A DNA stretch of 64,000 nt from an uncultured Candidatus Poseidoniales archaeon (GTDB lineage: Archaea > Thermoplasmatota > Poseidoniia > Poseidoniales > Poseidoniaceae). The notes beneath the pieces were generated by a model, which did no database searches, had not been told where the DNA came from, and saw nothing but the letters and a program-made list of their open reading frames with translations. This document shows positions 42,424 through 61,723 of the stretch, one piece after another. Location of the stretch: contig CAJJAP010000004.1 in the NCBI GenBank assembly GCA_905182185.1, positions 72,178 to 136,177 of the forward strand, read 5' to 3'. Position numbers and translations under genes: made by a program. Position 1 is the first letter of the stretch; the number at the start of each line of letters is the position of its first letter.

Positions 42424-43889
<1,466 letters not shown>

Positions 43890-44145
43890 TCTCTTGTTAC
43901 GATCCTTTGGGCTACTTGTCACTTTTTCAATTTAATGAATAGCTGACCTAAAAAAATTGGCGAGAAAATAATGCACTTGAGCTTCTTGCACAAAATACGT
44001 CATAATCTCGATCACCTTCCTGACCCTGAGCTTGCTCCATGAGGAGGTTTCTCTGAATCGCAATGGCTTCGGCTTCACGTATGCAGAGGATGGCGGCAGT
44101 CATTGTCCCGAGGGACTCAGCCGCCAACGCCGTTCTACACAACGC

Positions 44146-44175
44146 AAGCAACCCCCCGTCTCACCTCCCCTATAT
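44146..44175 (-). promoter_or_regulatory. 30-nt conserved G-rich motif, copy upstream of 16S (ATATAGGGGAGGTGAGACGGGGGGTTGCTT)
   Basis: 26/30 identical to 58871..58900 upstream of rpl3, in the same orientation. Contains a TATA-like ATATA and the SD-like GGAGGTGA. Confidence 0.55.
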
Positions 44176-44439
44176 CAAGATAACCTATCTCGCAGGGGGC
44201 GAGAAATGACGCACTGCTAAGCAATTATTGGCAAAAAATTCCGGCCCTGGCTCTTCAATTATAGGCCGGCGCCAATAACCACATTCCAATTAGTCAAAAT
44301 GGCGACTGATTATGAAGCAATAAGACTGATTTTCGCCCTATTAGGACAACTATCGTTCAAAGACAAGTTCTGATGCAAAATTGACAACAGGACCGATACT
44401 AACAATGTTGAGGCATCGATGGCCGGAGGCCCCTGTAAA

Positions 44440-46383
44440 TCATTCAGCGCCGAAGAACTGGCGGATCATCGGATGCATCTCCATCGCCTGTTCTTTCTGA
44501 ATCTGCTCATAGGTCCGCAAGATGATACCAACGGCTAGCAATAGACCTGTACCCGTAGCATTACCCACCGTACCTAACAAGTCGGCACCAGCAGCTAGCA
44601 ATCCTACGAAAGCACCAGAGAAGTATGTCACTGGAGGAATATAATTCTCAAGAATCTTTTCTAAAATCTTTGGATTCTTACGGAAACCTGGAATCTGCAT
44701 TCCGGTCCGTTCAATCTGCTTTGCTACGTCCTTCGTACCCATATTTGTAGTATCTATCCAGAACTTAGCGAATACCATAGAACCTGCAGTCATCAAGGCT
44801 ACATAGAATACTACGTGTACCATGATTTGAGTTAGCGAATGGCCGAATTGATCACCAGTTTGATTGAGCAGCGGCATAAACCAATCATTCACCCCATTTA
44901 CCATACTTGCATACCAGGCAAATCCACCTGAGGCCGTCGTTTGACCTTGATCATATGTACCGATATATTTCGACATAGAAGCGATACCCTCCCGACCCAA
45001 TATTGGTGTCTGCGAGAGCGTAGGATGGCTCCAGAACAAGAGTGTGAACATGTTGACGTTTGCTAATAAAGCGGCCATTAAAATGACCGGAATGTTACTC
45101 GCATAAACTAAACGAATAGGATATTTACCTCTATGACCACGGACTTTACCATGAGTCAAAGGAAGTTCCAATTTACTTGATTCTGCGAATGCAACAACTA
45201 GGAACACAACGATGGAAGAGAATAGCGCAGCCATAGGGTTGACGTGAGTCAGTAAAATGGTTTCGAAACCATTACCACCGCCAGGCAGTGAAACCATTTG
45301 GGTTGCCGTCGCCTCCCTAAACATGTAGAATATCATCGGTAGTGTCCCTGATGGAGGATTGGCTAGACTGTATGCTTGTCCTGCTGTAGCAGGGAGAGGA
45401 GAGAGAGTTCCAACGAATGTTGACTGTGCAACACCTGCAGCGATGAATAAGGAGATACCAGAGCCGATACCCCACTTGCTGACAAGTTCGTCGAGAAGGA
45501 ATACCAGGTAGGAACCAGCGAATAGTTGAGCGACGATAACGAAGTTAGCCCAACCCATTCCATATGCATCGATTAGCCACTCACTAGGATCTAAGAACCC
45601 ATAGGTCTGTGGAATCGATTCAATTGGGATCATTATTAGAACAAGTAGTTTTTGAACACCTTGGTAAAGAGCTTTATCATCGGAGTCACCTAGATCTAAT
45701 CTAATAATCTTAGCACCAGCGAATAATTGCATAATAATGGAACCAGTAACGATTGGACCGATACCCAAGTGCATAATGGTACCAGAAGCACCTGCCATAA
45801 TCGAACGGAATCCACTGAATAGGTCAAGTGCTTGACCTGACAATCCGAATAGCATGACATTGGTCATTGCGAAATAGATAATCAAAACGAATGTGGTAGT
45901 CCACATCTTTTCATTAAATCTAACGTGTCGGTCTGGCTTGGTAATAGTTGGGTAAACATCTACGAATCTTCGTAGAGCGTATAAACGGCTGCTTTCATCA
46001 CCACTCCACATGAAACAAGTAAGGATAGCAGCAGCCCCGAATCCAAGGAGAATAACCCCCACAAGGAAGAAACCTACTGCTTCATCATAACCGCCCCATG
46101 CTGCAGGACGGACATAGTAAACTGCGAATGCAACAAATGCCAACCATCCCATTAATTTACCATAACGGCCGACAAACTTCTCTTTCAAATTACTTGGGAC
46201 ATCTGTTCGGAAACAGAAGATACAATACGCAAGATAAATTACAGACAAAACCAGACCAACAACTGCTGCTTCGAATGCTGGACCACTTTCTGTGGATAGA
46301 GCATCTGATTGCCAATAGATCATCAGAGCATAGTATAATGCACCGGTTAATCCGATTGCCCATGGTATTGATTTGTGTTTCAT
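44440..46383 (-). CDS. secY: Preprotein translocase subunit SecY with ~135-aa N-terminal 4-TM extension
   Basis: The canonical archaeal SecY N-terminus (ITKPDRHVRFNEKMWTTTFVLIIYF) starts only at about residue 140 of the 647-aa ORF. Confidence 0.92.
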   Translation of the reverse strand: MKHKSIPWAIGLTGALYYALMIYWQSDALSTESGPAFEAAVVGLVLSVIYLAYCIFCFRTDVPSNLKEKFVGRYGKLMGWLAFVAFAVYYVRPAAWGGYDEAVGFFLVGVILLGFGAAAILTCFMWSGDESSRLYALRRFVDVYPTITKPDRHVRFNEKMWTTTFVLIIYFAMTNVMLFGLSGQALDLFSGFRSIMAGASGTIMHLGIGPIVTGSIIMQLFAGAKIIRLDLGDSDDKALYQGVQKLLVLIMIPIESIPQTYGFLDPSEWLIDAYGMGWANFVIVAQLFAGSYLVFLLDELVSKWGIGSGISLFIAAGVAQSTFVGTLSPLPATAGQAYSLANPPSGTLPMIFYMFREATATQMVSLPGGGNGFETILLTHVNPMAALFSSIVVFLVVAFAESSKLELPLTHGKVRGHRGKYPIRLVYASNIPVILMAALLANVNMFTLLFWSHPTLSQTPILGREGIASMSKYIGTYDQGQTTASGGFAWYASMVNGVNDWFMPLLNQTGDQFGHSLTQIMVHVVFYVALMTAGSMVFAKFWIDTTNMGTKDVAKQIERTGMQIPGFRKNPKILEKILENYIPPVTYFSGAFVGLLAAGADLLGTVGNATGTGLLLAVGIILRTYEQIQKEQAMEMHPMIRQFFGAE

Positions 46384-57684: not shown

Positions 57685-58704
57685 TCAGACCCCCTGCTTC
57701 GATGCTGTACTTACATAGGTAATCTCGTAATCATGTAGTGCCTTATCGCTACCACGAGTTGCGTCACGGAATCTGATCAAACGCTTTGCAGGACCAGGAA
57801 CGCTACCATGAACTAGAATGTAATCGCACTTTACTTCACCATAGTGAAGGAAACCGCCAGCAGGCGTAATTGAATGCTCTTCTGGGTTTGCTACACGCAT
57901 GATACGCTTGTTGTACTCAGTTCTTTGATGATATCCAGTTTGACCACCTTGACGGATGGACTTTCGAACATATCCGTCACCGAATGCTCCCATGTTACCG
58001 TGTTGTCGGCGTTTCTTGGAGTTCTTGTGAGATTGAAGCTTTCCACCGAATCGCTTGATAACACCTTGCCATCCATAGCCCTTGGTTACAGCGATAATAT
58101 CTGTTAGTCCGCCTTCCTTGAATGAATCTGCGAAAGAATATTCTTCACCCAACTTTTCCTTAGCGAATTGAAGTTGTTCTAAGAAAGTGCCACCATCAAG
58201 TCCCATCTCCATAACATCAGGGACCTTTGTTGAGAGTCCGCCGACTGTAGCAGGTTGTGTTGCAACGATTAAGCGAACTTCACAGAGATCTGCATTTTCT
58301 AGATTCTCGAAGTGCTTCTCTGCATCGTGCTCTTTGCGCTCTGGTAGGCGCTTGAATAATTCAGGGAAAGCATCAGAGATTTGGCTTGCATCTGACCAAG
58401 CCTCTCCGATTGCCCTCATACCATAGGGGCTCATTTCGTATCCACGTACTCCAAGAATTCTCATCTTAGGGCATTCAACAACTGTTACTGGAACACGAAC
58501 TTCTTGACCTGCAGAAAGACTAGTTGGGTTTAAATCACGAGAAAGAATGTGAGTCATGCCAGCTTTCCAGCCAGCAAATCCTTGCACTCTAACTTCGCTC
58601 GCATCGGTTGTTGGCCACGAATTTACATGACCGAATGTGCGGGCAGACCGCTTTCGCGGGCTAAACGCCATCGATCCACGACGTGGGTGATTTCTCTTTG
58701 CCAT
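57685..58704 (-). CDS. rpl3: 50S ribosomal protein uL3
   Basis: MAKRNHPRRGSMAFSPRKR N-terminus. ATG 58704 preceded by GGAGGA. The track ORF extends to 58806. Confidence 0.93.
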   Translation of the reverse strand: MAKRNHPRRGSMAFSPRKRSARTFGHVNSWPTTDASEVRVQGFAGWKAGMTHILSRDLNPTSLSAGQEVRVPVTVVECPKMRILGVRGYEMSPYGMRAIGEAWSDASQISDAFPELFKRLPERKEHDAEKHFENLENADLCEVRLIVATQPATVGGLSTKVPDVMEMGLDGGTFLEQLQFAKEKLGEEYSFADSFKEGGLTDIIAVTKGYGWQGVIKRFGGKLQSHKNSKKRRQHGNMGAFGDGYVRKSIRQGGQTGYHQRTEYNKRIMRVANPEEHSITPAGGFLHYGEVKCDYILVHGSVPGPAKRLIRFRDATRGSDKALHDYEITYVSTASKQGV

Positions 58705-58870
58705 ATGGGATTCCTCCAGTTTTTTGTACAACGAATTGGCCCCACCGAAGGGGCGTACGAGGGCTCTCAAGTTGAGAGAAGCCGTGACACTGCGTTCCGT
58801 TTCCACTGTTGGAAAACGAGACTATAGGATTCCTCTCGGGATGGTCCTGTGTGTCTGGCTACTCACCTTT

Positions 58871-58900
58871 AAGCAACCCTCCGACAAACCTCCCCTATAT
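58871..58900 (-). promoter_or_regulatory. 30-nt conserved G-rich motif, copy upstream of rpl3 operon (ATATAGGGGAGGTTTGTCGGAGGGTTGCTT)
   Basis: 26/30 identical to 44146..44175. Lies 167-196 nt upstream of the rpl3 ATG. Confidence 0.55.
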
Positions 58901-59068
58901 GAGGAGTTCGGTCTCTAAATGCGGCTTAGTTGCGTGGTTCTTTAATATCCAACCCACCTAGCAATCCCATAAAAAAACACCCCAATGCTACAAAAAGATT
59001 TCAGATTTCACTTTCATTATTCAGCAACCCCACGCATTATCCTTTTTTACCCTCGCCGTAAAGGAAAG

Positions 59069-61723
59069 GATATGGCAACTGTTCAACACCCATTCCTAAA
59101 GGATGGCGTTGAGGCAAGAGCATACCAATTTAAGGCCCTGAAGCAATGTTTAACGGCATCCACGATGATGGTGATGCCTACCGGTTTTGGCAAAACCGCA
59201 GTAGAATGGATGGCGATGGCCAATTGTCTGCACAATGAAAAAGGCAAGGTATTACTTATCGCACCTACTACCGGATTGGTTGAACAACAACAGAGAATGG
59301 CTAGGGCTATGATCGATATTGATGAGAATGAGATAATCACCTACACAGGCGATAACACACCTGCTAACAGACCAGAGTTATGGGATACTGGTAAAATTAT
59401 TATCGCAACGCCCCAAGTAATTCGCAATGATGTCCAAAATGGACTTATTGATTTGGCCGACTTAGGTCTAATAATTTTTGATGAAGCACACCATGCAACG
59501 GGCAACCATGCTTATTCTCAAGTTGGACAGTTGATGTTTAGCGCTAATCCCAAATGTTCCGTTATCGGTGCAACTGCTAGCCCTGGTTCTACTGAAATTG
59601 GAATTAGACAAGTCGCTAAAAATTTGAATATCAAAACTTACTCCGTTAGTAAGAAGGAAAATTCTCTTTTGCAACCATATAAGGTCAACATGAAAATCAC
59701 CCCTCACTATCTGGAACTTGGAGATGAACTCAATAAGATCATCCTACCTTTAGAACTCCATCAAAACGCAGAAGCAGAACAATTGAGAAAAATGGGATTC
59801 TTAGCCCCTACTGGGCATTTATCTTCGAAATTGATAGAAGATGCACAACGTAAGGCAAGCATTGCGATTCAAAGAAGAGATACTAGAGGGTATAATGCTG
59901 CAAGGAAGATCTCTAATCTGCGTAGGGTTCACATCTTGCTGGACCTCCTTAGAACTCAAGGATTGAAATCTGCCCAGGCATTTGTCGATAGAGCAGAAGA
60001 AGATGGCAGAAGTGGGCAAAGGGGCACAAATAGTTTCATTGCATTACCTTGCATCCATAATTTTAGAAATGTTTCAAAGCAATTCGATGAATTACATCCA
60101 AAACCTCAACATGCAGCTAACCTATTATCACAGCAATTGAAAGATTCCCCCGAAAGTAAAGTCCTAATCTTTACCGAATACAGAGATACGGTCGAATTGT
60201 TAACAGCCAAGTTCAATTCTATAGAGGGAATCATTGCTGACCGTTTTATTGGTCAATCTGGAACTGGAAGCAGAAAGGGAATGAATCAGAAACAGCAATT
60301 AGCACAATTACAAAGATTCCGTGAAGGAGACATCAATGTCCTAATTGCCACCTCTGTCGGAGAGGAAGGATTAGATGTCCCTGCTGCCGATTTAGTAATA
60401 TTATATGAGCCCGTTCCAAGCGCTATTCGAACCATACAAAGAAGAGGAAGAACTGCCAGACAACGGGATGGAGAAGTCCATATTCTAATCACAAGCGATA
60501 CACGAGATGTGTTCGTCTACATGGCTTCAAAAAGTAGAGAGAAGAAAATGCACATCCACCTAGATAAGATAAAGCGTGGTATTATATCGATTTTAGATAA
60601 CCATACAACTGGTGATGTTCTATCCGACTTTTCTGTTGCTGAGGAGGATGGAAGTATAGTCACTGCTGCCGATTACCTCTCCTCTGAAAAAAATAGACTT
60701 GACGAACTATACCCTGTATTAGAAACAGTAGAGCCAGAGGTCAAGAAAGGTAGCGGTGGAGTAAATATTACGGCTGGTGACAGTATTCCGCTAATCACTC
60801 CAGCGATGCGAAGGCCAAGCAATCAAATGGGATTAGATTCATTCTCCAATCTCAGTGAAAAGAAAACTGAAACGACCAATGTTGAAAAGGAAATTATTCT
60901 CGATAGTAAACAATTGAACTCGAAATGGAAAGTGACCTTAGATGGCTCCAAACAACAACTCATCGAAAAGGATGATGCTGATTATGGAATTATACAAGTT
61001 GACCACCGCGAAGCATCTACTACATTTGTCGCCCATATGCGTAGTATGAAATGTAATATTCAACTTACTCATCTGTACAACGGAGATGTACGCATTTCAG
61101 ATAGAGTCTTGATCGAAAGAAAAAGTTCTCGAGATATTATCTCCTCGTTGATGGATGGAAGATTATTATCGCAGTGCAGAAGATTACTTGCTGCCGCACC
61201 CCGCCCCTTATTGCTAGTTGAAATCGGAACTGAAACTGGCCACGCAGTCCACCCAAATGCAGTTCTTGGTGCATTAGCACACATTACATTAGATTTAGGC
61301 GTGCCAGTAATGATGACACAAAATGCCAAGGAATCTGCTCACTTTGTTAGTATTGCAGCAAAGCGTGAATTTGATTTATTGGAAAAATTGGCAACTTATT
61401 CATTGAACAAGAAATCAAATGCTGATTCCGAGAAAGGAGAGATTGAAAATTGTATTAACGCTGCAAATAAAGAAATTATCTCCATTATCAATGAACAGGA
61501 AGAAAGTGGACCCTTGGCAAAGCGATGGAACAAACTAGTTTCTAAGCAAAGAGTCGAAGTTCTTGCTGCGATCCCAAATTTAGGAAATAAGAAGGCCCAA
61601 TTACTTCTCGACCATTTTGGTACGATAGCAGCTGTATTATGTGCTAGTCAGAGTGAGTTGGCCAAGGTTGAAGGAATTGGGCCATCCACGGCAGCAACTA
61701 TTGAACAAATACTCAATGCTTGA
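59069..61723 (+). CDS. hef: Hef: helicase-associated endonuclease for fork-structured DNA (SF2 helicase + ERCC4/XPF nuclease + HhH2)
   Basis: MPTGFGKT, FDEAHHATG, QRRGRTAR. ERKSSRDIISSLMDGRLLSQ nuclease motif. C-terminal tandem HhH. Confidence 0.9.
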   Translation, partial: DMATVQHPFLKDGVEARAYQFKALKQCLTASTMMVMPTGFGKTAVEWMAMANCLHNEKGKVLLIAPTTGLVEQQQRMARAMIDIDENEIITYTGDNTPANRPELWDTGKIIIATPQVIRNDVQNGLIDLADLGLIIFDEAHHATGNHAYSQVGQLMFSANPKCSVIGATASPGSTEIGIRQVAKNLNIKTYSVSKKENSLLQPYKVNMKITPHYLELGDELNKIILPLELHQNAEAEQLRKMGFLAPTGHLSSKLIEDAQRKASIAIQRRDTRGYNAARKISNLRRVHILLDLLRTQGLKSAQAFVDRAEEDGRSGQRGTNSFIALPCIHNFRNVSKQFDELHPKPQHAANLLSQQLKDSPESKVLIFTEYRDTVELLTAKFNSIEGIIADRFIGQSGTGSRKGMNQKQQLAQLQRFREGDINVLIATSVGEEGLDVPAADLVILYEPVPSAIRTIQRRGRTARQRDGEVHILITSDTRDVFVYMASKSREKKMHIHLDKIKRGIISILDNHTTGDVLSDFSVAEEDGSIVTAADYLSSEKNRLDELYPVLETVEPEVKKGSGGVNITAGDSIPLITPAMRRPSNQMGLDSFSNLSEKKTETTNVEKEIILDSKQLNSKWKVTLDGSKQQLIEKDDADYGIIQVDHREASTTFVAHMRSMKCNIQLTHLYNGDVRISDRVLIERKSSRDIISSLMDGRLLSQCRRLLAAAPRPLLLVEIGTETGHAVHPNAVLGALAHITLDLGVPVMMTQNAKESAHFVSIAAKREFDLLEKLATYSLNKKSNADSEKGEIENCINAANKEIISIINEQEESGPLAKRWNKLVSKQRVEVLAAIPNLGNKKAQLLLDHFGTIAAVLCASQSELAKVEGIGPSTAATIEQILNA

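Follow-up and report, generated by a model that had tools for sequence, protein, structure and literature searches.

What could a 16S rRNA gene and a ribosomal protein operon have in common that would place the same G-rich 30-mer upstream of both, and is such an element read as DNA or as RNA? The question is raised by a window of 64,000 nucleotides (the whole stretch of DNA that was analysed) in a MAG of the Poseidoniaceae (Marine Group IIa; 1.55 Mb, 42% G+C, 63% completeness). In the window, the ribosomal protein cluster L3-L4...L18-S5-L30-L15-SecY has the 16S promoter immediately after it, in the same orientation, and a divergent gene for a Hef-type helicase-nuclease lies upstream of rpl3. 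The 23S and 5S genes are absent from this genome, probably because it is incomplete. The SecY ORF at the end of the cluster (44440-46383, minus strand) encodes 647 aa, of which the Pfam SecY/plug match covers only the part from residue 168 onwards; either the protein carries a long extra N-terminal part or its start was called too far upstream.

Two copies of one element

Direct inspection of the sequence bore out the earlier note in its basic description: the copies at 44146-44175 and 58871-58900, both on the minus strand, are identical at 26/30 positions (4/30 mismatches), and they lie 257-286 nt upstream of the 16S gene (42424-43889 by Rfam) and 167-196 nt upstream of the rpl3 ATG (58704), respectively. 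None is expected by chance, a degenerate pattern of the 30-mer having returned 0 matches in 100 dinucleotide-preserving shuffles of the window. The flanks had been called unrelated, which holds outside the block; however, the 3 nt preceding ATATA (TTG or CTC) are part of the same TATA octamer, and a CG or GG dinucleotide 6-7 nt further upstream is a BRE common to both copies. The features of the two loci are as follows, with model positions numbered from the first T of the TATA box (position 0).

44146..44175, minus strand: 30-mer, 16S copy, covering roughly -26 to +4 in the predicted promoter of 16S
44179..44186, minus strand: 16S BRE region, GG at model positions -7/-6 (general model S at -7, G at -6)
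44171..44178, minus strand: 16S TATA box TTGATATA, model positions 0-7, about -29 to -22
44150..44170, minus strand: 16S G-rich spacer, -21 to -1, with GGGG, GG, GACGG and a G run
44149, minus strand: predicted start of the 16S precursor, the G of TTGCTT at a pyrimidine-purine step, placed by geometry
43890..44148, minus strand: predicted 16S 5' leader, about 260 nt including the start base
42424..43889, minus strand: 16S rRNA gene, unlinked to 23S (Rfam RF01959, 1466.7 bits)
58871..58900, minus strand: 30-mer, rpl3-operon copy, as in the earlier note
58904..58911, minus strand: rpl3 BRE CCGAACTC, with CGAA at -7 to -4, unchanged across 76 related loci
58896..58903, minus strand: rpl3-operon TATA box CTCATATA, best site of the general model in the intergenic region
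58875..58895, minus strand: rpl3 G-rich spacer, GTCGG at -11 to -7
58874, minus strand: predicted rpl3-operon start, from geometry and the general promoter model
58705..58873, minus strand: rpl3-operon 5' leader, conserved and structured, separate from the promoter motif
57685..58704, minus strand: rpl3 (uL3; Pfam PF00297, 1.1e-85), head of the L3...L15-SecY cluster that ends at 44440

Core promoter anatomy and the predicted start

The 30-mer is predicted to be core promoter DNA, spanning a TATA box, a G-rich spacer and a start site from about -26 to +4. This reading follows from a general promoter model, obtained blind to the motif by running expectation-maximisation over the regions upstream of crude ORF calls (853 regions), together with about 150 leaderless genes. 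The elements of the model are:

-7 to -4: BRE, C/G, G, A, A
0-7: TATA octamer, T-T-S-A-W-R-A-A
13-15: spacer element, G-G-C
18-21: spacer element, T-T-G-G
28: T near the start

In the upstream regions of both 16S and rpl3, the best site of this model falls exactly on the motif, with T0 at 44178 and 58903, and the predicted starts are therefore 44149 and 58874, in each case the G of TTGCTT, preceded by T as in a typical pyrimidine-purine initiator. The two octamers, TTGATATA and CTCATATA, fit the de novo consensus TTSAWRAA, the rpl3 octamer scoring 13.4 bits (about the 95th percentile). The distance to the start is set by 150 genes of this genome in which the ATG stands 29-31 nt after T0; these are taken as leaderless mRNAs, which puts the start at position 29/30, the G-C of TTGCTT. 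A pyrimidine-purine step is thus predicted by geometry at a fixed distance from the TATA box, and T28-G29 occurs in all strong copies. The proposals of the earlier note that ATATA is the TATA box, here part of the octamer, that transcription would start near TTGCTT, here a prediction from model geometry, and that the conserved G-rich block occupies the initially melted region, where it fills the spacer as well, are all upheld by this analysis.

Further copies of the motif agree with this layout. The copy before rps13 ends 35 nt and that before rpl18e 20 nt upstream of the ATG, each ATG having its own Shine-Dalgarno (SD) sequence, which leaves no room for a further promoter 3' of the motif. At rpl3, position 58874 is also where the leader starts to be conserved among 18 diverse relatives and where its first predicted hairpin begins. 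Summed depths of RNA-library contigs were 208, 23 and 114 in the bin 58356-58882 and 0, 0 and 1 in the bin 58883-59400 in the same three runs from three studies, and one listed contig ends at 58840; these depths are consistent with a start near 58874 and give a weak hint of it, although assembled Logan contigs do not reveal 5' ends. In a fourth run a contig passes through the rpl3 start region, and this may be DNA or another strain. A scan of the 16S upstream region for sigma-70 promoters, which have no bearing on an archaeon, and for terminators returned no terminator-like site.

Several observations were made alongside. The lineage's general promoter reads BRE CGAA, TATA TTSAWRAA, GGC at about -16 to -14 and TTGG at about -11 to -8; about 150/407 modelled promoters are leaderless, and ribosomal protein genes keep SD-led 5' UTRs. 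The rpl3 leader (about 170 nt, 58705-58873, minus strand) is conserved across the family almost like a structural RNA: RNAalifold predicts 39 pairs, 6 of them with compensatory changes, and one predicted helix pairs CCUC with the GGAGG of the rpl3 SD. No Rfam family matches this leader, which is a candidate for an autoregulatory ribosomal protein leader.

A promoter class for the translation apparatus

A genome-wide search found two further full copies elsewhere in the genome, before rps13 and rpl18e (genes by Pfam), along with at least eight weaker copies. A matrix was then built on 12 instances taken from two further genomes of this genus, preceding L3, L18e, 23S, S13, S19e, S3Ae, L15e and S12, the genome under study being excluded to avoid circularity. 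In a scan of 3.09 million positions of this genome the matrix returned 18 sites above 8 bits. The top 12 precede the S13, L3 and L18e operons, 16S, an L41e-like 35-aa ORF, L15e, S8e, the L11-L1 operon, L37e, EF-1alpha, L21e and S2; RpoP, SufC, tRNA-Ile and L10e come after them. All of the top 12 are translation genes, so the motif marks the translation apparatus well beyond the two loci of the window. In relatives it also precedes 23S-5S, S12, S19e, S3Ae and L15e.

The motif thus appears, from its sequence contexts, to be the core promoter of a specialised class that serves the ribosome and the translation apparatus in Poseidoniales (Marine Group II), and to mark a co-ordinated "ribosome regulon". 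The link between rRNA and ribosomal protein synthesis drawn in the earlier note is strongly supported, with at least 12 translation operons carrying an element that is kept across the order. The wider search that it had called for located the motif before 23S-5S (in relatives), ribosomal protein operons, EF-1alpha and RpoP. The possibility of a generic repeat, which it had raised against itself, finds no support among the 12 best matches, all of them before translation genes, and the orthologous rpl3 and 16S loci carry the motif.

The search also touched on genes that are of interest in their own right. The L41e-like ORF (G000:C4:149195-149299, minus strand), outside the window, sits between two tRNA genes; Pfam returned no match to it, and its identity is based only on an Arg/Lys-rich RWKWRRKK pattern. 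The rpl37e gene (G000:C4:187328-187504, minus strand; L188:428-604), also outside the window, has a Pfam match of 6.9e-23 and lies upstream of a purF-like gene. Both were missed by simple ORF calling and were found only via the promoter motif; Rfam returned no match for three unexplained sites from the matrix and GTCGG searches, one of which later turned out to be rpl37e. Outside the window, downstream of Spt5 and a copy of the motif, rpl11 (G000:C10:148841-149152) appears split over two frames, a short ORF (MEFDTYAETLDIEADN) in one and the L11 RNA-binding domain in another, which suggests a frameshift or an atypical L11 N-terminus. In the relative G163, S3Ae (L130:128-1102, plus strand) has a C-terminal SAP domain (Pfam 2e-13).

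Conservation across Poseidoniales

Allowing up to two mismatches, the pattern is present in 84/101 sampled genomes of the family, with 1-4 copies each and a reversed-pattern control of essentially zero. A class-wide sample places it in 80/89 Poseidoniaceae and in 31/66 genomes of the sister Poseidoniales family, where matches precede S19e, L15e, S12, L37e, an rpl3-like leader and rRNA-like contig ends; in the same sample the class's two other families have the motif in 0/45 genomes, the reversed-pattern control again being about zero. At the rpl3 loci of other species the motif stands at the same distance in 76/80, and all four loci without it have too little upstream sequence. Conservation at these loci begins sharply at the BRE (ACCGAAC), with CCGAAC invariant in the 76, and the sequence further upstream is unrelated between genera.

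In three relatives with an assembled 23S-5S operon, the motif lies 131-132 nt before 23S. The 16S promoter is found at the same 257-nt distance in three relatives, with ATATAGGGGAGGT and TTGCTTGCG kept, and the position and much of the sequence of the 16S leader are kept in relatives as well. The G run at -8 to -3 is missing from the 16S promoter of same-genus relatives, which means that the block also contains dispensable parts. As a point of genome organisation, 16S is unlinked from 23S-5S in the relatives G012, G023 and G021, each unit having its own copy of the motif, and in G012, a complete genome, 16S follows 16 kb after the rpl3 promoter, an arrangement that the window shares.

Shared pattern and class-specific spacer

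How far does the ribosomal class depart from the ordinary promoters of this genome? The latter have a spacer G+C of 0.52, above that of the genome, with a weak GG(C) at 13-15 and T-S-G at 19-21, and tRNA promoters show looser versions of the pattern. The ribosomal class ranks only 57th-58th of 853 on the general model. Its layout consists of a BRE with S-G at -7/-6, seen in all ribosomal copies examined; an almost perfect TATA octamer, TTSATATA, at 0-7; a 21-nt spacer with fixed GGG(G) at 8-11, GG at 13-14, G(T/A)CGG at 18-22 and GG at 24-25; and an initiator T-G-C-T-T, in which G at 29 is the predicted +1. Compared with the general model it has T instead of C at 15, G instead of T at 18, C instead of G at 20 and G at 22-25, and the bases that are fixed in the class are T at 4 and 6 in the TATA box, GGG at 8-10, G18, C20, G22, G24-25 and C30-T31. 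These deviations, at well-constrained positions, are explained by a class-specific reader no less well than by the basal machinery.

The non-template strand of the 16S spacer is 67% G; in four strong copies the non-template G content of the spacer lies at the 96th-100th percentile of 395 promoters, and G+C at -11 to -1 is 0.64-0.82 as against a mean of 0.50 among the 395. Only 10 intergenic sites of this genome combine a TATA box with a correctly spaced GTCGG, namely those before L15e, L3, S13, S8e, EF-1alpha, RpoP, the thermosome gene and three of unassigned identity. Mean column identity of the spacer is 0.87 for L3 (63 unique orthologues) and 0.56 for the thermosome promoter (30 family genomes), the one control promoter, from a genome sample that differs from that for L3; the BRE/TATA values are 0.92 for rpl3 and 0.86 for the thermosome. 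The spacer is hence kept at L3 and not at the thermosome while BRE and TATA are similar, which argues that the spacer of the ribosomal class is under selection of its own. It would accordingly count as a class-specific element, with the proviso of a single control promoter and differing genome samples. Judged by sequence comparison, ribosomal promoters appear to be both general and special, in that shared elements are sharpened and bases of their own are fixed.

Alternative explanations

The anatomy set out above bears on readings in which the motif acts as RNA, as folded DNA or not at all. The earlier note had considered that the motif might be transcribed; on this account a promoter further upstream would carry GGAGGT(GA) into the RNA as an SD mimic pairing with the 16S 3' tail. 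The complementarity is there, GGAGGTGA of the 16S copy against the 16S 3' end GGATCACCTCCT, and in one run an RNA-library contig bridges the 16S promoter, although this may be DNA, read-through or another strain. However, the predicted start lies 3' of the G-rich block and would leave the block outside the transcript, the general model offers no better promoter further upstream, and a separate SD follows the motif at rps13 and rpl18e. Nor is the GGAGG core kept: position 12 is A or T, L18e reads GGGTTGGCG or GGGATGGCG and 23S TGGGTGGTA, so that these copies contain GGTTGG, GGATGG or GGTGG, several others have GGAGA or GGAGT, and those of S19e and L15e are also without GGAGG at that place. The invariant TATA, GTCGG and TGCTT have, moreover, no anti-SD logic, and a transcribed SD-like element is extremely unlikely. 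A G-quadruplex in the non-template strand that would control promoter opening finds some encouragement in the 3-5 runs of at least two Gs within 25 nt of each copy. With at most two runs of three or more Gs per copy, where the canonical structure has four, only a weak two-tetrad form would be possible, which argues against a canonical quadruplex; the bases that vary least include T19 and C20 of GTCGG as well as TGCTT, which such a fold does not require, and the same-genus 16S copies lose the long G run. We regard a quadruplex as very unlikely. A purely historical similarity, by recent duplication or gene conversion of one promoter with no shared function, might be suspected of two copies only 15 kb apart on the same strand, but the flanks of these two are unrelated, at least 12 dispersed operons carry the motif, and each keeps its own variant across genera and both families, the ATAATGGG..GGC form always standing before rpl18e. 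Conservation across the order refutes this explanation, to which we assign a negligible chance.

An account that leaves the motif where it is, in the core promoter spacer, deserves more weight: the G-rich block may be bound by a regulator dedicated to the ribosome regulon, either a repressor occluding polymerase recruitment or a protein that recognises the non-template strand, rich in G, once the complex is open. The block lies between the TATA box and the start site, the usual place for archaeal repressors to bind. The block is class-specific, the TATA box with GTCGG being confined to the 10 intergenic sites, mostly at translation genes; the class departs from the general consensus at constrained positions; and its spacer is far more constrained than that of the thermosome promoter, the single control. 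Against this, no spacer in any copy or in the consensus contains an inverted repeat of 4 nt or more, which speaks against a classical dimeric operator, similarity to the matrix is graded from 56 down to 12 bits with no on/off class of sites, and GG at 13-14, T-S-G at 19-21 and T28 are common to ordinary promoters. No candidate factor was identified, and the number of TFB paralogues does not track the range of the motif. Of the earlier note's proposal of an operator for a co-regulating factor, the link between rRNA and ribosomal proteins stands, while the dedicated operator is weakened by the lack of dyad symmetry and the partly ordinary promoter pattern; a dedicated regulator, though a rival to be taken seriously, is rather unlikely.

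A proposed discriminator-like element read by the basal machinery

Any mechanism has to accommodate the position and geometry of the element, its gene set, its conservation across the order and the constraint on its spacer relative to the control, all of which the analysis shows. The reading that we favour, at a probability of roughly 55%, is that the spacer is a discriminator-like element read by the basal transcription machinery, and it would act during assembly of the initiation complex and DNA opening. It is favoured because GTCGG and the G run would lie in the melted region and because of data on TFE in Sulfolobus (PMC4495717). The archaeal melted region begins about 12 bp upstream of the start (PMC7289017). 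The strength of Sulfolobus rRNA promoters depends in part on the sequence here, which also determines the degree of stimulation by TFE, and TFE-beta declines in stationary phase (PMC4495717).

Under the favoured reading, TBP would occupy the TATA octamer and TFB the BRE, and GGGGWGG, just downstream of the TATA box, would lie at the DNA contact of the first TFB cyclin fold. The initially melted region (-12 to about +2) would have GTCGG and the G run as its upstream half, over which the TFB linker/reader, TFE and the RNA polymerase clamp may act. A common and unusually G/C-rich melted region could impose the same initiation and opening kinetics on all operons with the motif, and the synthesis of ribosomes would follow, as a unit, any factor that limits formation of the open complex, be it the level of TFE, supercoiling or the initiating NTP. 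Shared opening kinetics of this kind would couple the ribosome operons to growth, in functional analogy to the bacterial discriminator.

In 5/5 genomes of Poseidoniaceae there are two TFBs and a single TBP, with a further weak TBP-like match. Counts of TFIIB cyclin-repeat matches are four per genome in both Poseidoniales families (two TFB genes) and six per genome (three TFB genes) in the class's two families that have no motif. A TFB or TBP paralogue as the class-specific reader was considered and rejected, as the TFB count does not track the distribution of the motif and ribosomal and ordinary promoters have the same BRE.

A bolder proposal, which we hold to be possible though doubtful, is that the spacer is the cis-element of a dedicated growth-rate control of archaeal ribosome synthesis, with a candidate single class-specific reader. 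The rRNA, ribosomal protein and elongation factor operons would then be switched together via GTCGG and the G runs, and the reader would be a regulator or a specialised use of TFB/TFE.

Relation to known promoter systems

In its kind the element is already known, being a member of the archaeal BRE/TATA/Inr promoter family. In methanogens, tRNA and rRNA promoters were described in the 1980s as a box A (TATA) about 25 bp upstream and a box B (TGC) at the start. As in these, and as in the archaeal BRE/TATA/Inr scheme (PMC7289017), a BRE adjoins a TATA octamer; the pyrimidine-purine step is part of a TGC that follows the final A of the TATA box by about 22 bp, and the pattern is strongest and most regular on rRNA and translation genes. 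The 21-nt spacer of Marine Group II differs from those of described archaeal promoters, which are low in information or A/T-rich, in being conserved and G-rich (GGGG, GG, GTCGG), and the lineage's TATA consensus TTSAWRAA is unusual as well. What appears new, on the evidence of the sequences, is an information-rich, G-rich and regulon-specific spacer that is kept across an uncultured order. No published description of a Poseidoniales promoter motif was found in the searchable literature. The bacterial discriminator is a G+C-rich segment between the -10 element and +1 in rRNA, tRNA and ribosomal protein promoters under stringent and growth-rate control. Like it, the archaeal block is a G/C-rich segment just before the start, in the melting region, common to rRNA and ribosomal protein promoters. 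Unlike it, the block belongs to an archaeon with TBP and TFB, with no sigma factor such as sigma-70 and no known ppGpp/DksA, and it is longer, strand-asymmetric and sequence-specific (GTCGG); the relation is one of analogy, not membership.

The closest archaeal comparison for a functional role is the proximal promoter element and melted region of Sulfolobus, where the sequence from about -12 to the start affects rRNA promoter strength and the response to TFE, the latter offering a possible route to growth-phase control (PMC4495717). The Sulfolobus region is A/T-rich and no motif common to ribosomal genes was reported for it, whereas the Marine Group II block is G/C-rich, regulon-wide and known from sequence. 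Marine Group II start sites were mapped by mdRNA-seq in the Red Sea, with no archaeal promoter motif reported (PMC5069720). The TCT core promoters of eukaryotic ribosomal protein genes offer a parallel as a distinct core promoter variant reserved for the translation apparatus, although there is no sequence relation, and TCT coincides with the start site and works with a TBP-related factor (PMC5580651). Among the genomes sampled no alternative TBP or TFB tied to the motif was found, unlike in the TCT system. The G/T-rich bases just after the TATA box resemble the downstream TFIIB recognition element, where TFIIB/TFB contacts DNA.

Implications for ribosome synthesis in Marine Group II

A group that ranks among the most abundant archaea of the surface ocean appears to mark at least a dozen translation operons, including both unlinked rRNA units, with one extended core promoter, the spacer of which seems to be under purifying selection across an order. 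The interval from TATA box to start in archaea can, it seems, be G-rich and rich in information, against the usual picture of an A/T-rich melted region. In practical terms, the motif may be used on uncultured genomes of Marine Group II to locate promoters and predicted starts of their ribosomal operons; it also provides a defined sequence for functional testing of ribosome-operon control. To our knowledge, archaea have a stringent-like control without bacterial ppGpp/DksA, and we know of no established signal of a ribosomal regulon. The element bears on how archaea match the synthesis of rRNA and ribosomal proteins to growth, and a dedicated control, if true, would make it an archaeal counterpart of the stringent promoters of bacteria or of the ribosomal protein core promoters of eukaryotes.
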